Shown here: positions 5,189 through 59,958 of the stretch, piece by piece | Numbering within the stretch: position 1 is the first letter of the stretch | Layout of the letters: each line of letters begins with the position of its first letter | Assembly (NCBI GenBank): GCA_028709545.1 | Contig: JAQVWT010000001.1 | Coordinates: forward strand, 658 to 64,657 | Reading direction: 5' to 3' | Length of the DNA stretch: 64,000 nucleotides | Source: Bacilli bacterium | Lineage (GTDB): Bacteria > Bacillota_I > Bacilli_A > RF39 > UBA660 | The notes under the pieces: model-generated | Databases searched by the model: none | The model's input: only the letters and a program-made list of their open reading frames with translations | What the model was told of the DNA's origin: nothing | Position numbers and translations under genes: made by a program

Positions 5189-5264
5189 GTCCTGTTAGCT
5201 CAGTAGGTAGAGCATTTGACTTTTAATCAAAGGGTCGCGCGTTCGAGTCGCGCACAGGACACCA
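5189..5264 (+). tRNA. tRNA-Lys(TTT); its 3' 50 nt form the prophage attL core
   Basis: Acceptor gtcctgt/acaggac; anticodon loop ctTTTaa; CCA; 3' part repeated at 35973..36026. Confidence 0.85.
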
Positions 5265-5403: not shown

Positions 5404-6456
5404 TCAATCTAATAAATCTATTGTTGCTATTAATTGTTCTTTCGTTTTACTATTATAAATACCATCTGTAATATCTCCACTAACAGAGTGCCCTAATATT
5501 AATTTGCGCGCAAGTCTATTAGCTCCCTTAGAATCCAAATCGGTGCTACAAGTGTGGCGACCGTCATGTGGAGTATGATCTAAATCTAGTTTAATCATTA
5601 ACTCTTTATATTTATCTAAATAATATCTATAATTCATTGCTCTTTTTGAATCATTCCATATTAGATATTCAGATTTGTTATCTTCACTAATTGTAATCCT
5701 ATTTTCAATTAAAGGTATTATTCTTTTATGTATAGGAATTATTCTATTAATACCAGCTTTTGTTTTTGATCCTGCTATTAAATATCTTTTATTTAAATTT
5801 ATTTTATCCAATTTGACATTTAATAATTCGCTAGGCCTTAATCCTGTATATATTAATATTATAACAGTATCCACATAATCCTGCTTTAAATTTTTCCATA
5901 ATATTTCTTTTTCCAATTTGCTGAAAGGCTTATGTTTTGATGATAACTCTTTTTTGCCTAATATCACAAATTCGGCATAATTCATTTTTATTGGTAATTC
6001 TTTTTGTTTAGCAATCTCAAATAATTGATTAAACATAATTTTAACATAGTTCTTAGACGTATAACTCTTATTAATCATATTATCTATTATATCTTGTATA
6101 TCAGATGTTCTGATATCAATAAAACGTTTATTATGCAATTTACTTGATTCATTATAAGCAGCATTATAATTTCCTATGCTAACAATATCTTCTCTTAATT
6201 TCATTTTTTTAAAATGATCGAAAACTCCGGTCAAAGTAATATCTAAGTTATTAAAATCATAAGGATCATTGAGATACATAATTAATGCTCTTTCGGCTAA
6301 CTGTCTTGTTTCCCAATACTTTCTTCCGTCCCATTCAATTATTTCCTTTTTTTGCTTTCCCTGATCATCCCAGTTGTTAGTTATAAAAGCAAAGAACGGG
6401 TTTCTTCTTTTACCAGATAATTTTGATGTTCCTCCAGCTCCGTTTGCTCTTTTCAT
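5404..6456 (-). CDS. int: phage integrase (tyrosine recombinase)
   Basis: TGLRPSEL (R), HDGRHTCST (HxxR), LGHS (H), TDGIY (Y): tyrosine-recombinase catalytic residues; sits next to attL. Confidence 0.85.
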   Translation of the reverse strand: MKRANGAGGTSKLSGKRRNPFFAFITNNWDDQGKQKKEIIEWDGRKYWETRQLAERALIMYLNDPYDFNNLDITLTGVFDHFKKMKLREDIVSIGNYNAAYNESSKLHNKRFIDIRTSDIQDIIDNMINKSYTSKNYVKIMFNQLFEIAKQKELPIKMNYAEFVILGKKELSSKHKPFSKLEKEILWKNLKQDYVDTVIILIYTGLRPSELLNVKLDKINLNKRYLIAGSKTKAGINRIIPIHKRIIPLIENRITISEDNKSEYLIWNDSKRAMNYRYYLDKYKELMIKLDLDHTPHDGRHTCSTDLDSKGANRLARKLILGHSVSGDITDGIYNSKTKEQLIATIDLLD

Positions 6457-14459: not shown

Positions 14460-14906
14460 ATGGTGGAGACTGACGAATTAACAATAGCAACAGCATATGA
14501 TAAATTACTCGCAACTAATAACAAAATAGAATTATTAGAAAGATTACGACAAATTAATTCCGAGCCGCTAAAAGCAGCTAAACTAAAAGAAATATTAACT
14601 AATGGTAGTAGGAATAATAATGAACAACTGTTTTATAAAATATTAAGAGAAGATAAAAACTCAATAGAGCTAAGAGAATTGTATCAAAAAAAAGCCTCTG
14701 ATGAAGCTTACATCTTAGAAGAGATTAATAGAATGAGTTTATCCGCTCCAACTATAGCTATTGTTTTCTTAAAAGACATCCAAAAGTTTAGTTGGAAAGA
14801 AATCGCAAAAAAGCTATATGATTATTATAGCGAAAGGCAAATAAGAAATTTTTATTACGAATACAAAGAAAAGTTAAAATTAACTAATAAAATATACGGT
14901 AAATAA
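14460..14906 (+). CDS. ArpU/RinA-like late transcriptional activator (sigma region-4-like HTH)
   Basis: C-terminal FSWKEIAKKLYDYYSERQIRNFY HTH; sits just upstream of the packaging module, as ArpU-family activators do. Confidence 0.45.
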   Translation: MVETDELTIATAYDKLLATNNKIELLERLRQINSEPLKAAKLKEILTNGSRNNNEQLFYKILREDKNSIELRELYQKKASDEAYILEEINRMSLSAPTIAIVFLKDIQKFSWKEIAKKLYDYYSERQIRNFYYEYKEKLKLTNKIYGK

Positions 14907-14931
14907 TAAAAAAATCAACAGTCAAGCAAAG

Positions 14932-14960
14932 TTGCCAGTTTTTGCCAGTTTAGCTATGCT
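14932..14960 (+). promoter_or_regulatory. candidate sigma70 promoter (TTGCCA-N17-TATGCT) at the start of the GC-rich non-coding segment
   Basis: Hexamers and spacing read directly from the sequence. Confidence 0.3.
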
Positions 14961-15428
14961 ACAATAACTATGATGAGATACTTATACATAGATCGATATA
15001 AGATTTCATTACCCAAAACAATTGGACATAAATTAAATCTTTCTTAGGAACAGTTTATTCCATCAAGTAGTGACTGATAGACTACTTGATATACTAGGTT
15101 CAAAAACCGTACTGTCTAATATGAGCATATAGAATAATCCTATATCAGGTAGAATTCAGGCGAATATGATTAAATGCTGAAAAACAGCCTATGTTTTATG
15201 AGTGGTGGTGTATGGGAAACACGGTTAAAGATAACTGATAAGCAAGGATATCCATTGAGCTTATCCCAAAGGTGTAAGCCCTTATCTACTCAAACAAAAA
15301 AATATGCTCACAGAGGTTCTGGCCGAGTAAATCCGCTAGCGAGCAATCAATTACGCAACCTCAATAATAGGCATGATGAGTGGAGCTAGCCGTCCACCAA
15401 CTTAAAACTCTTTAATTAGAGTTTTTTT
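14961..15428 (+). ncRNA. candidate structured non-coding RNA of unknown class (~470 nt)
   Basis: 533-bp gap between tightly packed genes; GC content visibly above the ~28% background; the only ORF (15174..15389) is R/S/G-rich and atypical for this genome; promoter upstream and strong terminator at the 3' end; many local inverted repeats. Confidence 0.35.
15404..15428 (+). terminator. rho-independent terminator
   Basis: aaaactct-ttaatt-agagtttt hairpin followed by T7; the HNH gene RBS follows immediately. Confidence 0.6.
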
Positions 15429-15439
15429 CATGAGGTAAT

Positions 15440-15769
15440 ATGGGGAATAAAAATAAAATAATTAGATTACAACTTATTCAAATTTATGGAGAAATTTGTA
15501 TGCTCGGAGAACCACTATCTATTGAAAATTATATTACTTTACACCATTTAATAAAAAAAGAACACAAAGGAGCTACCAGCATTAAGAATGGTGCTCTGTT
15601 AAGCAAAATTATGCATGAATATTTACATTACATAGAATGTTGGTATATTGGCCATTATCACTATATTAATGATTATTTAAGATATTACAAAGAAACCGAA
15701 GATCCCAGTGAAAAAGATAAAATGAATTGTTATATCAAGAAATTAAACAAAATAAATAGAAAGGTTTGA
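15440..15769 (+). CDS. HNH endonuclease (packaging-associated type)
   Basis: CMLGEP...TLHHLIKKEHKGATSIKNGALLSKIMHEYLH is an HNH motif. Confidence 0.55.
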   Translation: MGNKNKIIRLQLIQIYGEICMLGEPLSIENYITLHHLIKKEHKGATSIKNGALLSKIMHEYLHYIECWYIGHYHYINDYLRYYKETEDPSEKDKMNCYIKKLNKINRKV

Positions 15770-15773
15770 TCGA

Positions 15774-16694
15774 ATGAAACATATATGTTTTTATTATTAT
15801 CATATTAACATTATTGGCGGCGTTGAAATAGCGATACTGAATCTAATAAAATTATTAAGTAAAGAGTATAAAATAACTATAGCTTATACCAAGCAAGACA
15901 GTAGCTTAGACATGTTGTTAAGATTAAATAAATATGCTGATATAGTAAATGTCAAATATCAAAAAATCGCATGTGATACAGCTGTTTTCTGCTCTATTTA
16001 TTGTGAAACTCCAAAAAATATAAAAGCTAATAAATATGTTAGATGGTTGCATGGCAATCTTAAAGAAATAGGTTATAATTTAACTAAAGAAGATTTTATA
16101 AATGACTACGTAACGGTAGGTAAGGAATGCCAAAAACAATTAAAAGAAGTTACAGAAGTGGAATCGAATTTAATATATAATGAACTTGATCCTGAAATAC
16201 ATAAAAAAGCTAAAGAAACAATAAATATAATAAAAAAACCTTTAACATTAGTCACAGTATCAAGAATTTCCATAGAAAAAGGTTTTGAAAGAATGTTAAA
16301 ACTCGCCAGATTATTAAAAGAAAAAAAAATAGATTATATTTGGTATATAATCGGATGCAGTTATGACAAGGCTTATGAGGCAAAAATTAAAGATACTAGT
16401 CCGAAAGAATTTATCTATTTAGGAAAATTGGATAATCCGTTCCCATATATGAAAGAATCGGATTTTTTAGTGCAATTAAGCAGTTATGAAAGCCAAGGGT
16501 TATCGGTAGTCGAATCGTTAGTTTTAGGAACACCAGTAATAGTAACTAAATGGAAAGCAGTTAATGAAGTCGTTACAGATAAAGTAAATGGCTATATATT
16601 AGATATGGATTTTAATGATATTCCTGAACTTCAAAAATTAGTGTTCAGATATGAATATAAAAGTAATTATGAAAGGTGGAAAGAAATATTATGA
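15774..16694 (+). CDS. GT-B fold glycosyltransferase (family 1/4-like)
   Basis: N-terminal IIGGVEIAILNL; C-terminal E-x7-E motif ESQGLSVVESLVLGTPVI typical of retaining GT4 enzymes. Confidence 0.6.
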   Translation: MKHICFYYYHINIIGGVEIAILNLIKLLSKEYKITIAYTKQDSSLDMLLRLNKYADIVNVKYQKIACDTAVFCSIYCETPKNIKANKYVRWLHGNLKEIGYNLTKEDFINDYVTVGKECQKQLKEVTEVESNLIYNELDPEIHKKAKETINIIKKPLTLVTVSRISIEKGFERMLKLARLLKEKKIDYIWYIIGCSYDKAYEAKIKDTSPKEFIYLGKLDNPFPYMKESDFLVQLSSYESQGLSVVESLVLGTPVIVTKWKAVNEVVTDKVNGYILDMDFNDIPELQKLVFRYEYKSNYERWKEIL

Positions 16695-17018: not shown

Positions 17019-17336
17019 ATGACACTAGAAAGAATTAAACAACTTATTAGAGAAGATAAAATTATTTTATTTTATAAAAGTAAAGCTTGGCGTATTAAAA
17101 AAAATGAAATAAGAAAAAGAGACGGATACGAATGCCAAGAATGTAAGAAACAAGGAGGGTTAACAACTATACAACAAGCTAAACTAGATGTGCATCATGT
17201 TAAAGGACTAAAGGATTATCCGGAACTAGCGTTTGTTAATAGTAATTTAGTAACTGTATGTGTTAATCATCACAATATATTAGATGGAAGAATTAAACCA
17301 AAGAAAAATAAATTTATTAATGAGGAAAGATGGTAA
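17019..17336 (+). CDS. HNH endonuclease
   Basis: CQECKK...HHVKGLKDYPELAFVNSNLVTVCVNHHNILDG: CxxC plus HH and N...H. Confidence 0.6.
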   Translation: MTLERIKQLIREDKIILFYKSKAWRIKKNEIRKRDGYECQECKKQGGLTTIQQAKLDVHHVKGLKDYPELAFVNSNLVTVCVNHHNILDGRIKPKKNKFINEERW

Positions 17337-17545: not shown

Positions 17546-17548
17546 TAT

Positions 17549-17601
17549 AGCCCCCATTCAAAAATTTTGACGATTTTTAGAAAAGTCAGGAAACGGGGGC
17601 T
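17549..17601 (+). promoter_or_regulatory. GC-rich long-range hairpin upstream of terS (possible cos/pac or late-promoter element)
   Basis: agccccc ... gggggct inverted repeat enclosing about 40 nt, unusual in this AT-rich context. Confidence 0.25.
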
Positions 17602-17654
17602 GGGTAATAAAAACGAGTAAATAAAATAATAATCACATAAGGGTGGTGGTATAA

Positions 17655-18008
17655 ATGGCTAAAAAGAAAAGGTTATATCCTAAAAAATTATATGATCAAA
17701 TTAAAACCGATCTATTAAATCAATTAGAGTTAAATGGGGTGGCCGGCAAACATTATGAAAATATGATTGAAGATTATATGCAGTTTTGGCACACCAAAAT
17801 GTTGTTGCAAGAAGATATTAAATTACGAGGAGTAAATGTCGAATACAATAATGGCGGTGGTCAAAGCGGCTTTAAAAGAAATGATAGTGTTACCGATTTA
17901 GTTAAAGTTAATTCCCAAATGTTAAAAATATTATCAGAGTTAAATTTAAAACCATCTAAGGAAGGTGGTAAGGATGACCCCAAACCAACCGAAGACGATT
18001 ATTATTAA
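17655..18008 (+). CDS. terS: terminase small subunit (P27-family-like)
   Basis: ~117 aa, immediately upstream of terL; MAKKKRLYPKKLYD...NNGGGQSGFKRNDSV pattern. Confidence 0.5.
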   Translation: MAKKKRLYPKKLYDQIKTDLLNQLELNGVAGKHYENMIEDYMQFWHTKMLLQEDIKLRGVNVEYNNGGGQSGFKRNDSVTDLVKVNSQMLKILSELNLKPSKEGGKDDPKPTEDDYY

Positions 18009-19671
18009 AGAAGTAGAAGAATACTTAAATTGGTGTTATGAAAATCCAAATAAAATAAATAAAAAAAGATGGTTGCTGATAAAAAATATAGTTGAACCTA
18101 CATTAAGGAGAGCTGATATTTTTTTTGATGAAGAAAAATATTATAAATGTATTGATTATTGTGAAAAATGGTATTATCCATTATTTCCGTATCAAAAATT
18201 TATATATGCTTTTGTTTTTATGTTTAAAAATAAAAATTTTTCTTTTGAAAATAAGATCCCATTATTTCATAAATTTATAATTGAAATGGGTCGAGGAAAT
18301 GGTAAAGATGGATTTATCGCTCCTTTATGTAATTTTTTGCAAACTCCGATGTACGGAATTAAAAATTATAATATTGATATAGTAGCAACTAGTGAAAGTC
18401 AATCTAAAGACACTTTTTTGGTAGTTCATGATATGATGACTTCTAATATTAAAAAAATGAAAAAACTATTCTATATAAGTTTAGAGTTGATAATGAACTT
18501 GTTTACAAAATCGAGATTAAGATACAATACTTCAAACGCAAAAACTAAGGACGGCAAAAAAGTTGGTGCTATAGTATTTAACGAATATCACGCTTATGAA
18601 AATTACGAACAAATATCAGTTTTTGAAAGTGCGGGAGGTAAAGTGCCTCATTTTAGGATATTTATAATAACTACTCAAGGTAACGTTCGAGAAGGTCCGT
18701 TAGATGATGAATTAGAATATTGTGCCTCTATATTAAACGGTGAAGATAACAATCTTGGGGTTTTTCCTTTTTTGTGCGAATTAGATGATCTTAAAGAAGT
18801 TGATAACCATGAGATGTGGGTAAAGGCTAACCCTAGTATAGAATATATGCCTAATTTACTTGAAGTTATTAAACAACAATATCAAGAGCAAAAAGAAAGG
18901 CCGCAAAAAAGATTTGAGTTTTTGACAAAAAGAATGAATGTTCCGTCAAGAGATGAAACTACTTGTGTAGCAAGTTGGGAAAATATTCTTGCCACCAACC
19001 AAGAAATTCCTGATTTAAAAGGAATGAGTTGTTTAGGGGGAATTGACTATGCAAGTATGAATGATTTTTGTGCTGTTGGTTTATTATTTAAGCAAAACGG
19101 CAAACGTTACTGGATGCATCATTCTTTCATTTGCAGCAACAGTATTCATTTAAAAATGGTAAATAAAAAATTAAAAATTGATTTAGCTGTTGAAAAAGGC
19201 TTAGCAACAATGGTCAATACAAATAGTATTAACCCAGAAGTAGTTGTTAGTTGGTTTGTTCAGCAATCCAAAAAATATAATATTTTAAAAATTGCTTGCG
19301 ATGATTACCGATTTGCATTATTAAAAGAAGCTTTTGAAAAAGAAGGATTTTATGAAAAATGTAAAAAATACCCTAATGGAAGAATAATAGTTGTTAGGAG
19401 TGGACCTATTACTCATAATCGAGTAGCTACTATTATTGATGATATGTTTTATAATCAAACTTTAGTTTATGGTGATGATATGTTGATGCGCTGGTACACA
19501 AATAATACTGCTGTTAAAGTTGACGGTAAGGGAAATAAAACATATGAAAAAATAGAATATCAAACAAGAAAAAATGATGGTTTCATGGCATTAGTTCATG
19601 TTATGAGTATAGATAAAGAATTACCAACTATAAAAAGTAGTGGGAAATTAATGAGGCCTATAATAGGCTAG
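17974..19671 (+). CDS. terL: terminase large subunit
   Basis: ~565 aa; ATPase N-domain then nuclease domain; position between terS and portal; start set at the ATG with RBS GAAGGTGG (track GTG at 17965). Confidence 0.75.
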   Translation: MTPNQPKTIIIKEVEEYLNWCYENPNKINKKRWLLIKNIVEPTLRRADIFFDEEKYYKCIDYCEKWYYPLFPYQKFIYAFVFMFKNKNFSFENKIPLFHKFIIEMGRGNGKDGFIAPLCNFLQTPMYGIKNYNIDIVATSESQSKDTFLVVHDMMTSNIKKMKKLFYISLELIMNLFTKSRLRYNTSNAKTKDGKKVGAIVFNEYHAYENYEQISVFESAGGKVPHFRIFIITTQGNVREGPLDDELEYCASILNGEDNNLGVFPFLCELDDLKEVDNHEMWVKANPSIEYMPNLLEVIKQQYQEQKERPQKRFEFLTKRMNVPSRDETTCVASWENILATNQEIPDLKGMSCLGGIDYASMNDFCAVGLLFKQNGKRYWMHHSFICSNSIHLKMVNKKLKIDLAVEKGLATMVNTNSINPEVVVSWFVQQSKKYNILKIACDDYRFALLKEAFEKEGFYEKCKKYPNGRIIVVRSGPITHNRVATIIDDMFYNQTLVYGDDMLMRWYTNNTAVKVDGKGNKTYEKIEYQTRKNDGFMALVHVMSIDKELPTIKSSGKLMRPIIG

Positions 19672-25085: not shown

Positions 25086-25308
25086 CTTTCCAAAAATCGT
25101 TAAGTCTAGCTACGAAAAAAAGTACAAAAAGAAAGTATAAAAGAGCTAATTATCAAATAAAAACATTAGCTGATGTTTTTACTCTTTATGTTTTAGTTGC
25201 TGGTATCCCAGAGCAAACTTTTTGGAATACGGATGTCAGATTTTTGGAACTATTATATATAAACAAATTAAGCTGGGATGCTTATATTAAAAATCCTAGA
25301 GAGGGGTA
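25076..25308 (+). CDS. -1 frameshift extension of the chaperone (gpGT-like fusion, ~75 extra aa)
   Basis: Heptamer A AAA AAC at 25076..25082 in the chaperone zero frame; the -1 frame is open from 25082 to the TAG at 25306..25308, 5 nt before the TMP start. Confidence 0.55.
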
Positions 25309-25312
25309 GATT

Positions 25313-27466
25313 ATGGCAAAGAAAAAGGGAATAGATTTAAGTTTTTCGATTGCTGAAAGTGAAGCTTTAACTTCAATAAGAAATTTAACATCGCAAGTCA
25401 CAACTATGAATAAAGAACTTAATTTAACCAATACTGTGCTAAGGAGTGATAGTGCTTCAATTGATACTTATAAAAACAAATTAGATGTTCTATCAAGAGA
25501 AAAAGAAGTGTTAAGTAATAGAGTTAGAGTTGCAAACGACACTTTAGAAAAAGCTAAATCTACTTATGGAGAAAACTCTACAGAAGTTCAAAAATGGCAA
25601 AATCGTTTACTTGATGCCCAAATTGCACAACAAAAAGTTGAAAATCAGATTGAAGATACAACTAAAGCAATTGATGAGTATGGGAAGGAAACTGTAGAAG
25701 CTTCTGAAAAAACATCAATATTTGGAGATGTTTTAAAAGCTAATTTAGCAAGTGATTTAATAATGAGCGGTGTTAAATCAATAGTTAATGGGGTTAAAGC
25801 TATTGGAAAAGTGGTTGGCGATGTTATTGGTGATAGCATAAAAGCGTATGCAGATTATGAACAATTAATTGGTGGCGTTGAAACTTTATTTAAAGATAGT
25901 GCTGATATAGTAAGCGCTAATGCTCAGCAAGCGTATAGAACAGCCGGAGTGTCTGCTAATAAGTATATGGAACAAGCAACAAGTTTTAGTGCTACATTAC
26001 TTCAAGGATTAGATGGTGATACTGCTCAAGCAGCTAAATATGCTGATTTAGCAATAACAGATATGGCAGATAATGCTAATAAAATGGGAACAGATATCTC
26101 TTCAATCCAAAATGCTTATCAAGGCTTTGCTAAAGACAACTATACAATGCTAGATAACCTTAAGCTTGGATATGGGGGAACTGCTGGGGAAATGGCTCGA
26201 CTGATTAATGATAGTGGAGTAATGGGCGATAGTTTTAAAGCTACAGCGCAAAATGTTAAAGAGATCCCTTTTAATAAAATGATTCAAGCAATTCATGATA
26301 CACAAGTTGAAATGGATATTACTGGAACAACAGCTAAAGAGGCAAGCGAAACAATTAGTGGAAGCCTTAATTCAGTTAAAGCTTCTTGGGAAAACGTTTT
26401 ATCTGCGTTAGCTAGTGGGAACGATGAGATGTTAACTGATTCCATTGACGGAATTTTAGAAGGAATAGGGAATTTGGTAACAAATGTGGTAGCAATATTG
26501 CCTAATATTATAGAAGGTTTAGGGAAACTTGTTGAGGGAGTAATTTCACAATTACCGTCATTAATTAAAAAAATATTACCTACATTATTAAATACTGTAA
26601 AATCATTGATTAACACTTTAATAACAATTCTTCCAGAACTGATACCAGTGGTAATTGAAATGATGAATTATCTAGTGAAAATAATACTTGAAAATTTACC
26701 ATTAATTCTCGAAGCTGGTATTCAGATTTTGTTATCTTTAATTGAAGGAATAGCAGATGCATTACCCGATTTAATACCCGCAATAGTAGAGGCTATATTA
26801 CTAATCGTGGATACATTGCTTAATAATATAGATTTAATAATAACAGCCGGAGTTGACATTTTAGTCGGATTAATAACAGGGATTATCTATGCAATTCCTA
26901 AACTAATTCAGTATGTTCCTCAAATCATAATTAAACTGGTTTCTGTTTTGATCAGTCAAGTACCTAGACTTTTAACGGTAGGGGTAGAAATAATTGCTAA
27001 AGTAATAGCTGGAATTGTTGGGAATATAGGAAAAATGTGGACAATTGGGAAAGATATGGTTGCAGGAATATGGGAAGGAATATCTAACTCATTCACTTGG
27101 ATTAAAAATAAAATTAGTGGTTGGATAGGAAATGTTACTAGTTTTATTAAAAAATTATTTGGAATAAAATCCCCATCTACTTTAATGAAAAATGAAGTTG
27201 GGCTAAACCTCGGATTAGGAGTAGCAGAAGGAATAACTGATTCAGTTGGGGCAGTTAATTCAGCTATGAGTGGACTGCAAGATTCTGTTATATCACAAGT
27301 TGAACCTTCAATTAATATTGGTGATGCAACTGCAGATGGTATTGAATTAGGAGTTGGCCGTCCGCTATACATTCAAATTGCGGAATTTAACAATAACAGA
27401 GAACAAGATATTGAAACCTTAGCTGAAGAACTCGCTTATTATTTAAATCAAAAGGAGTTGTCTTAA
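25313..27466 (+). CDS. tail tape measure protein
   Basis: 717 aa; coiled-coil N-part and long hydrophobic/Gly-rich repeats. Confidence 0.8.
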   Translation: MAKKKGIDLSFSIAESEALTSIRNLTSQVTTMNKELNLTNTVLRSDSASIDTYKNKLDVLSREKEVLSNRVRVANDTLEKAKSTYGENSTEVQKWQNRLLDAQIAQQKVENQIEDTTKAIDEYGKETVEASEKTSIFGDVLKANLASDLIMSGVKSIVNGVKAIGKVVGDVIGDSIKAYADYEQLIGGVETLFKDSADIVSANAQQAYRTAGVSANKYMEQATSFSATLLQGLDGDTAQAAKYADLAITDMADNANKMGTDISSIQNAYQGFAKDNYTMLDNLKLGYGGTAGEMARLINDSGVMGDSFKATAQNVKEIPFNKMIQAIHDTQVEMDITGTTAKEASETISGSLNSVKASWENVLSALASGNDEMLTDSIDGILEGIGNLVTNVVAILPNIIEGLGKLVEGVISQLPSLIKKILPTLLNTVKSLINTLITILPELIPVVIEMMNYLVKIILENLPLILEAGIQILLSLIEGIADALPDLIPAIVEAILLIVDTLLNNIDLIITAGVDILVGLITGIIYAIPKLIQYVPQIIIKLVSVLISQVPRLLTVGVEIIAKVIAGIVGNIGKMWTIGKDMVAGIWEGISNSFTWIKNKISGWIGNVTSFIKKLFGIKSPSTLMKNEVGLNLGLGVAEGITDSVGAVNSAMSGLQDSVISQVEPSINIGDATADGIELGVGRPLYIQIAEFNNNREQDIETLAEELAYYLNQKELS

Positions 27467-35972: not shown

Positions 35973-36026
35973 TTTGACTTTTAATCAAAGGGTCGCGCGT
36001 TCGAGTCGCGCACAGGACACCATTTA
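35973..36026 (+). repeat. attR core (partial tRNA-Lys 3' copy)
   Basis: Identical to 5215..5268; no tRNA 5' half upstream. Confidence 0.85.
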
Positions 36027-59037: not shown

Positions 59038-59877
59038 TTATGTAAGACGGATTACAGTTAAAGTTGCACCTGCGCCACCTTGAAGAACGGCTGTACCAAT
59101 TACACCAAAAAGTTGTAGACTAAGCTCATCGCCAGCATCAAGAGTAGTTATCGTAGTTGCTGTAAAGCCTGTTACACTAGCTATAGGTGAGAACACAGAA
59201 CCAGCAAGTGTTGAACCATTAAGTGTGACCCGAGAAGATAATAATAAAGCAAGCGTTATATTGATTTGATAAGTTACTAAATATGTTCCATCTTCGGGAA
59301 CAGTGAACACTGTATTTCCTCCACTTGCGGTAAAACCATCAAGACTTTGATTGTCGGATAGTGCTATATCGGTACCACCTACTACTACAAGAATGGTGTC
59401 TTCATCAGTATTTTGCGCATTCATTGAGTTTTCAGTAACAACTAACCCATCAGCTCCAGTAGCTCCAGTTGGTCCAGTTGGCCCAATTTCACCATCAGCT
59501 CCAGTAGCTCCGGTAGGTCCAGTTGGCCCAATTTCACCGTCAGCTCCAGTAGGTCCAGTCGGTCCGGTAGGTCCAGTCGGTCCAATTTCACCATCAGCTC
59601 CAGTAGCCCCGGTAGGTCCAGTTGGCCCAATTTCACCGTCAGCTCCAGTAGGTCCAGTCGGTCCGGTAGGTCCAGTCGGTCCAATTTCACCATCAGCTCC
59701 AGTAGCCCCGGTAGGTCCAGTTGGTCCAGTCGGTCCGGTAGGTCCAGTCGGTCCAGTTGGTCCGGTAGGTCCAGTCGCGCCCGTCGGTCCAGTTACACAA
59801 CAGACATATGTAATTGGAAAAGGTTTTTTAAGTGGATTATCTTTGATATAATCAAAATTATTTTGACATGTTTTCAT
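59038..59877 (-). CDS. collagen-like (GPT)n repeat protein with BclA-type C-terminal β-domain
   Basis: Long G-P-T / G-A-T / G-E-I triplet run; C-terminus ...[11 protein letters not shown] resembles the BclA C-terminal domain; start set at MKTCQNN with RBS AAGGAG (track start 59940). Confidence 0.5.
59440..59790. repeat. GC-rich tandem nonamer/27-mer DNA repeats encoding (GPT)n
   Basis: Repeated ggtccagttggcccaatttcaccatcagctccagtagc units; explains spurious antisense ORFs 59351..59851 and 59442..59693. Confidence 0.8.
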
Positions 59878-59958
59878 GTTTTCACACTCCTTTCTTAATA
59901 TTTTATGATTTATATTTATAAAACAGTAGTTGAAAACCACTAATTTTCATACTTTAGC

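Follow-up and report, generated by a model that had tools for sequence, protein, structure and literature searches.

The DNA analysed here, a stretch of 64,000 nucleotides from a Bacilli bacterium (contig JAQVWT010000001.1; hereafter the window), carries an integrated prophage in which 533 bp, positions 14907-15439, lie between an open reading frame (ORF) of 148 amino acids (aa) and one of 109 aa. This gap had been singled out from the sequence alone as a candidate large structured RNA (the original prediction). Our analysis indicates that in the late operon of the prophage it probably serves as control region and 5′ leader, rather than being a gene for an ornate RNA of the ROOL or GOLLD type, and that a 258-nt insert in its 3′ part is most likely an orphan, separable non-coding passenger or decayed cargo that would be transcribed within the leader. 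As an observation, the original prediction was upheld in its non-coding gap, its terminator and the gene starting at 15440, and had to be corrected in the details of base composition, promoter and gene spacing.

The prophage spans about 5265-36022 (roughly 30.8 kb), is integrated in tRNA-Lys and ends in an exact 50-nt direct repeat (attL/attR, 5215-5264 and 35973-36022) formed by the 3′ part of tRNA-Lys(UUU), with an integrase gene at 5404-6456 on the minus strand. The gap is the longest interval in the prophage separating rightward ORFs of at least 50 aa. Genes elsewhere in the prophage had been said to overlap or lie less than 120 bp apart, which was inexact given the runner-up gap of 227 bp at 25086-25312; this second gap, also non-coding, precedes a 717-aa ORF (25313-27466) that occupies the tape-measure position and has no Pfam match. 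The segment had also been described as clearly richer in GC than a ~28% background. This is true of 15143-15400, at 41% GC, with 44% over 15200-15400 and 50% over 15305-15400, and does not extend to the first 236 bp (14907-15142), which at 30.5% are near the prophage background of 29%. The GC enrichment is genuine, and it is limited to the 3′ part of the gap, 15143-15400.

The sole ORF of more than 25 aa within the gap, and hence the only one of at least 50 aa, has 71 aa (15174-15389) and no match in Pfam or PHROG, in keeping with the earlier statement that these 533 bp hold no credible ORF. An exhaustive HMMER search of 1.84 billion representatives found no credible homolog. Two library matches were rejected. 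One, to a repeat protein, was inflated because a single 34-aa stretch of 38% identity entered the count eight times; the other was to a PKD-repeat protein. The frame has no proper Shine-Dalgarno sequence, the closest AGG lying at least 13 nt upstream, and in the related locus L005 a 1-nt deletion at ~15246 shifts it after codon 24. Six-frame scans of the insert against Pfam and PHROG were negative, as was a comparison of its six frames with a profile of the HNH-like family encoded by the next gene. The gap is non-coding, and neither a coding sequence nor a pseudogene was detected in the insert.

Table 1. Features of the cassette, the neighbouring genes and the corresponding slots of related loci (L numbers denote loci used for comparison; MFE, minimum free energy; z, folding z-score against shuffled sequences)
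Feature	Position	Strand	Details
Regulator gene, 148-aa basic protein	14460-14906	+	Putative late transcriptional regulator (Ltr-like); C-terminal helix-turn-helix; isoelectric point 9.05; upstream of the repeats and packaging module
Exact tandem direct repeat, 2 x TTGCCAGTTT	14932-14951	+	Putative regulator-binding site, read from sequence; starts 26 nt past the stop codon
Extended -10, TGcTACAAT	14957-14965	+	TG 14957-58, TACAAT 14960-14965; from nine-locus comparison
Leader hairpin 1 (5′-terminal)	14971-15011	+	-10.2 kcal/mol; z = -3.55
Leader motif CCCAAAacaaTTGGACATAAATTAAATCTTTCTT	15012-15045	+	Pyrimidine tract at end; common to L025
Leader hairpin 3	15062-15090	+	ATCAAGTAGT, 9-nt loop, ACTACTTGAT; 10 bp; in MFE and centroid folds
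Lineage-specific cargo-slot insert	15143-15400	+	Non-coding; length 258 nt, GC 41%; neither a family nor a fold signal detected
Intrinsic terminator	15404-15428	+	AAAACTCT, loop TTAATT, AGAGTTTT, U7; 8 bp; -7.0 kcal/mol
First late gene, 109-aa HNH-like protein	15440-15769	+	Shine-Dalgarno GAGGT 15432-15436
Glycosyltransferase gene	15774-16694		Downstream of the HNH-like gene
Canonical packaging-type HNH gene	17019-17336		
terS	17655-18008		
terL	17965-19671		
Slot of L001	L001:4746-4801		tRNA truncated to model positions 8-63, acceptor stem lost; 35.1 bits in Rfam; anticodon loop UGAACAC
Slot of L002			tRNA-Thr
Slot of L003			tRNA-Pro, tRNA-Met, tRNA-Trp
Slots of L004 and L026			Short unassigned sequence
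Slots of L006 and L007			Nothing
Slot of L027	L027:1175-1724		Full-length ROOL RNA (RF03087); 208.7 bits, E = 4.7e-46; model 1-574

Putative late promoter, leader and terminator

The gap was compared with the contigs of ten members of the HNH-like family and of two homologs of the upstream regulator. The cassette shared by these loci runs in the order regulator, repeats, extended -10, 5′ hairpin, pyrimidine tract, hairpin 3, variable segment, terminator and next gene. Searches with the flanking proteins found no related locus in viral contigs and returned two distant loci in genome contigs and 11 in metagenome contigs, none of them with a tRNA or an Rfam match.

Across the loci the regulators have roughly 140-160 aa and a C-terminal helix-turn-helix. 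Those of one group, at the same position in relatives, match phrog_36 'transcriptional regulator' (1.2e-11) and, weakly, sigma factors, a late activator and Q; for one relative the expectation values (E) were 0.0018 with Pfam Phage_antitermQ and 0.011 with a Q-like PHROG. Directly downstream, two direct repeats with a 10-nt period are found at the same position in all nine aligned loci, and their cores vary by phage (TTGCCAG, TGGCAC, TGACAC, TCTTAC, TTAGAC, TTACAC, TTGGAA and TTGCGAG). The repeats are followed by the overall pattern TATGnTAnAAT, with TAnAAT in the same alignment columns in 7/9 loci (AATAAT in L003 and L026) and the TG extension in six of the nine, and transcription is predicted to start near 14971-14973. 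The promoter originally proposed, TTGCCA-N17-TATGCT, proved an unremarkable consensus match when taken alone: chance would produce 14.4 promoter-like sites in a generic promoter scan, which gave 19. The two TTGCCA motifs sit in the tandem repeat, and the nine-locus comparison places the -10 at TACAAT. Late transcriptional regulators (Ltr) of Gram-positive phages recognize direct repeats that lie immediately past the ltr gene (PMC3753634). Ltr (RinA/ArpU/LtrC) late promoters as published agree with the window in regulator gene, repeats and extended -10: the gene is small, encodes a basic protein, precedes the packaging module with terS and terL, and has direct repeats close behind it. By this analogy, the TTGCCAGTTT repeats, the regulator and the extended -10 most likely constitute a putative Ltr-type late promoter.

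Ten related metagenomic loci show the leader that would be transcribed from this promoter to be modular. In 9/9 loci a hairpin begins within a few nt of the predicted start, and the sequences of these hairpins are unrelated. Their z-scores range from -1.2 to -5.8, and in 8/9 loci at most 4 of 200 shuffles fold as well. The motif that follows is shared with L025 in the form CCCAAAcaTTGGGCATAAGTTTAAACCTCTTTTCT, the L025 regulator being ~42-44% identical to that of the window, and other leaders have pyrimidine tracts such as CACCUCC or CCCUCUUUC in the same position. Such tracts resemble the 3′ end of 16S rRNA in all leaders (e.g. CAUCACCUCC, CACCUCUUUC and CCCUCUUUC); they were located at 15037-15045 in the window, ~2812-2821 in L002 and ~1206-1216 in L003, and were also seen in the leaders of L026, L027, L001 and L006. 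In L026, L027 and L001 the tract is able to pair with a purine run after hairpin 3. Possibly, the tract sequesters the downstream ribosome-binding site or closes a leader domain. The counterpart of hairpin 3 in relatives, AGCAAGA...TCTTGCT, lies in the same place. In the MAFFT alignment of the leaders, which comprised only six divergent sequences, the hairpin arms were mis-registered.

At 15404-15428 a stable hairpin is followed at once by a U-run, as in a Rho-independent terminator. The original prediction called this terminator strong. Its hairpin and U7 were confirmed and its position is conserved, and the strength was overstated, as the AT-rich stem has only 2 G-C pairs. Its z is -3.61, and 0/200 shuffles are as stable. 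A generic terminator scan missed the site because it requires at least 3 G-C pairs. A hairpin and T7-8 run just before the ribosome-binding site of the next gene occur in L001-L004, L006, L007, L026 and L027, so that the position is kept in 8/8 loci whose leader was readable through to the next gene.

The gene at 15440 starts directly after the terminator as described, and its assignment as an HNH endonuclease is sub-threshold (E = 0.0031, 18.1 bits against the Pfam HNH cutoff of 21.4). Its family comprises 20 clusters (P0001-P0020) among 5.8 billion proteins and has the conserved pattern C..L..TLHH..NGALLS..H..LH. Members follow the leader terminator, save in L001 where a short ORF intervenes, and always adjoin the hypervariable slot. 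It is conceivable that the protein is a free-standing homing-type nuclease that promotes cargo exchange. An AlphaFold2 model of it was too poor for use (predicted local distance difference test score, pLDDT, 53).

The variable slot and its insert

Between hairpin 3 and the terminator, the related loci carry quite different contents (Table 1), among them tRNA genes, a truncated one that appears to be a tRNA gene in decay, and a ROOL RNA. The ROOL of L027 (JGI 3300002898, contig draft_10093020) lies between an Ltr-type late promoter with two ATTGGAAA-type repeats and an HNH-like first late gene, and is followed by its own terminator, so that in this phage ROOL would have a defined late transcription unit. 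ROOL and GOLLD are known from prophages, where they occur beside tRNA islands (PMC5737381, PMC12286853). The original prediction had placed the gap in a ROOL/GOLLD-type context, and this contextual intuition was good, because the syntenic slots of relatives hold full-length ROOL (L027) or tRNA genes (L002, L003), in agreement with the literature.

The content of the window's own slot recurs in L005, which has a near-identical copy of the entire gap, its 1-nt deletion being the single difference. L024, with a regulator 95% identical, equals the window exactly over 14839-15142 and is unrelated afterwards, which shows 15143-15400 to be a separable module; past the counterpart of 15142 it has a short hairpin-T run and then a different gene. 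This short hairpin and T-run in L024 (~858-887) reads GTAACGGTTAC TTATTTTTTT, and the window has GCTGAAAAACAGC CTATGTTTTAT at 15186-15197. Possibly, the window sequence is the vestige of an earlier terminator, behind which the downstream 200 nt would then have been added.

Searches for the insert beyond these relatives were negative. Blastn found no match in phage and plasmid records, three exact insert patterns and two leader patterns were absent from viral contigs, and blastn and nhmmer against all fetched loci returned only the near-identical L005 and L024. In these collections the insert was found only in near-identical L005, and it is absent from L024. A reading as template repeat or repeat element was discarded, the insert having no repeat elsewhere in the window.

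Family tests were also negative. Rfam 15, applied at the gathering threshold to the whole window and at E <= 10 to 14700-15600 (901 nt) and 15130-15432 (303 nt), gave nothing in the region except chance-level matches to unrelated models, namely small nucleolar RNAs, a Streptococcus pyogenes small RNA and IS128 (E 0.11 to 9.5). The models for ROOL, GOLLD, HEARO, OLE, group I/II introns, tmRNA, tRNA and self-cleaving ribozymes were among those without a match, so the proposed cmsearch check yielded no class at E <= 10 and the suggested alternative of a ribozyme found no model in its favour at that level. The earlier remark that intron and tmRNA hallmarks are missing was borne out by the unmatched Rfam models and by ARAGORN, which gave no tmRNA. 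For ROOL, there was no hit even at E <= 10, let alone at the gathering score of 99.1 bits, and the same model gave 208.7 bits with the positive control, L027. ROOL RNAs are ~580 nt long with an ornate fold, while the insert has 258 nt and the whole leader ~455 nt. The prophage setting and a syntenic slot with tRNAs or ROOL in relatives do agree with the known context of ROOL near tRNA genes, yet context alone does not establish membership. HEARO, the omega-RNA of IscB, lies directly upstream of a large IscB ORF (~400-500 aa) with RuvC and HNH domains; here the downstream ORF has 109 aa and its HNH match is sub-threshold. Whether or not introns were allowed, ARAGORN reported neither a tRNA nor a tmRNA at its standard threshold or at 80-85%. 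Its 'tRNA-Leu' at the 70% threshold (15199-15293) was rejected because 141/300 shuffles (47%) also score. Comparison of the insert with 13 host tRNAs gave no significant similarity (z -1.4 to +1.0), and there was none to the ROOL of L027. A hammerhead-like 'AUGAUGAG ... stem ... CCAAC' seen by eye at 15375-15402 was dismissed, its core positions being wrong and Rfam giving no support.

Folding of the insert was no better than that of shuffled sequences (z = +0.08 on the plus and +0.19 on the minus strand), with -1.26, +0.19 and +0.36 for its sub-segments, and its ensemble is ill-defined, the MFE being -55.9 and the centroid energy -32.8 kcal/mol. The controls scored -5.83 (L027 ROOL), -4.81 (L026 leader), -2.21 (L004 slot) and -1.76 (three-tRNA array of L003). 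The whole 473-nt transcript reached -2.3 (+) and -1.4 (-), a signal that comes from the shared 5′ leader (z = -2.2). The test is insensitive to tRNA-sized structure, yet it clearly separates ornate RNAs from the insert. The many short inverted repeats reported earlier confer no excess folding stability on the GC-rich part.

Proposed mechanism and alternative explanations

Given this arrangement, we propose that the regulator binds the TTGCCAGTTT repeats and would activate the promoter late in infection, like the Ltr/RinA/ArpU proteins, upon which RNA polymerase would make a leader RNA of ~455 nt, about 14972-15428. Ending at the terminator, this RNA would be short and abundant and would include the slot content; alternatively, transcription would run on into the genes for the HNH-like protein, the glycosyltransferase and the packaging-type HNH protein and into terS and terL. 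Probably, the 5′ hairpin shields the RNA from 5′-end-dependent decay, and sister phages would use this arrangement to express tRNAs or ROOL. Weak Q-family matches of one relative hint at the nature of the read-through, which could be constitutive leakage or regulator-dependent antitermination in the style of lambda Q at PR′-tR′. The interpretation originally offered is supported as far as a discrete non-coding unit (promoter, ~455 nt, terminator) in a ROOL-type slot is concerned. It is not supported for the large ornate RNA itself, for which there is no Rfam match at E <= 10, no diverged homolog in the collections searched and, with z = +0.08 against -5.83 for ROOL, no comparable fold signal.

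Several points weigh against a late-operon leader with a passenger insert. The window regulator has no Pfam or PHROG match at E <= 0.001, and its group is connected to the other regulator group by a weak, co-linear link (hhalign E = 0.001, probability 21%). The start site, the termination and the late timing are all deduced from sequence. Were the insert a neutral passenger, its GC content of 41-50% within a phage of 29% and its open 71-codon frame would both be left unexplained. The insert is known only from near-identical copies, and a z-score near 0 is no proof of absent structure because a real three-tRNA array scores only -1.76. Finally, a 13-nt exact match, CCTTATCTACTCA, links window 15280-15292 with the L026 leader at ~1495-1507, ~20 nt before the L026 terminator. 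It was reached by 3/300 shuffles and is nominally unusual, eight comparisons having been made, and it hints that part of the insert may be a conserved leader module.

Of the other explanations, we regard it as possible but doubtful that the slot once held tRNA genes or another stable RNA, of which the insert is the decayed remnant, still elevated in GC but without structure and function. L001 shows such decay in the same slot, the missing fold signal fits, and tRNA-like snippets can be seen by eye, namely UGGCCGAGU and a terminal ...GUCCACCA before the terminator, in the place that the tRNA CCA ends have in L002 and L003. These snippets, including the terminal CCACCA, are however backed by no test, and the negative tRNA results at E <= 10 in Rfam, the ARAGORN score matched by nearly half of the shuffles, and the lack of significant similarity to host tRNAs or the L027 ROOL all argue against a recognizable remnant.

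It is unlikely that the insert, possibly with the shared leader, represents a new class of structured phage non-coding RNA that would be expressed from the late promoter in the niche of ROOL, GOLLD and tRNAs. Its position between promoter and terminator, a GC enrichment like that of stable RNAs in AT-rich genomes, the ROOL or tRNA genes in the syntenic slot of relatives and the score of the whole transcript would all suit such an RNA, and the sole difference in L005 lands in a predicted hairpin loop. Set against this, the transcript score stems from the 5′ leader and not from the insert, whose ensemble is ill-defined, no diverged homolog or Rfam match was found in the collections searched, and the closely related L024 does without the insert. 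More broadly, that the insert harbours a lineage-specific functional RNA, structured or base-pairing, seems to us similarly improbable.

The two remaining explanations carry very little weight. That the 71-codon frame encodes a small basic phage protein (a moron) is highly improbable, since an open frame of this length is unusual for AT-rich DNA but comes with no proper Shine-Dalgarno sequence, is shifted in L005 and has neither a Pfam or PHROG match nor a credible homolog. Equally remote is a packaging site (cos or pac) acting at the DNA level, an alternative that the original prediction had allowed for: the gap does lead into the packaging module, with an HNH gene close by, but the packaging HNH gene, terS and terL lie at least 1.6 kb downstream with a 109-bp gap of their own (17546-17654) directly before terS, and the slot content is freely exchanged among relatives. 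The closest isolated phages have TerL identities below 48%. In phiCD6356, PSA and LP-030-2, which are among the nearest, terL begins at ~position 435-620 of the record, leaving room at the genome start for terS alone, and we infer from this that cos lies just upstream of terS, at 17546-17654 in the window.

The GC maximum of the window (up to 61%) lies outside the prophage, at 59351-59780 within the minus-strand gene 59038-59940. This gene encodes a BclA-type exosporium protein (Pfam BclA_C, 5.7e-42), and the maximum corresponds to its collagen-like GXY repeat. Such a protein points to a spore-forming Firmicute host.

Comparison with known systems

For the window, the result is mostly deflationary: what had been taken for a GC-rich RNA island is best read as a late promoter followed by a leader and a terminator, and the orphan insert shows none of the measurable hallmarks of ornate RNAs. 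With ROOL and GOLLD, the gap shares the prophage and tRNA-island setting (PMC5737381, PMC12286853), and the L027 ROOL occupies the very same slot. It differs in the length of the insert (less than half of the ~580 nt), the absence of a model match at E <= 10 and the folding score. Phage tRNA islands are alike in that the slot lies between leader hairpin 3 and the terminator, as for the tRNA genes of L002 and L003, and in the final ...CCACCA of the insert, which stops a few nt short of the terminator. The difference is that the insert has no tRNA by Rfam or by ARAGORN at normal thresholds, the low-threshold match being noise.

In the late cassette of lambda, the Q gene is followed by PR′, a 194-nt '6S' leader RNA and tR′, and late expression needs read-through. 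The window resembles it in that the regulator gene is directly upstream of the promoter and a short leader ends at a terminator before the late genes. Here, by contrast, matches to Q are confined to the weak ones of one relative given above, neither a pause nor a Q-binding element was identified, the hosts are Firmicutes, and the leader bears exchangeable RNA genes.

The Ltr-type late promoters (RinA, ArpU and LtrA-C; Quiles-Puchalt et al. 2013, PMC3753634) have a small basic regulator gene (~130-150 aa) just upstream of the packaging and morphogenesis genes, with regulator-specific short direct repeats directly past the stop codon and the late operon beginning right after, and in all of this the window is alike. 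It departs from them in that its regulator matches no RinA, ArpU or Ltr model, in having two 10-nt repeats rather than the three 7-nt repeats of the analysed ArpU phage (PMC3753634), in the long structured leader with cargo slot and own terminator that follows the promoter, and in its first late gene, which is HNH-like and not terS. In this small group of uncultivated Firmicute phages, tRNA genes and ROOL are thus found in a defined cassette, with a putative regulator-dependent late promoter and 5′ hairpin upstream and, downstream, a terminator ahead of the first late gene, which offers natural 'slot-swap' comparisons. If the arrangement is wider, ROOL, whose function is unknown, would gain a concrete transcription unit and a timing, late and co-regulated with the virion genes; and if the insert were a new non-coding RNA after all, this would imply that the late-expressed RNA cargos of Ltr-controlled leaders form a class of functional equivalents. 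The novelty is not the insert itself; it is the cassette, a variant of the known Ltr late-promoter regions with exchangeable RNA cargo.

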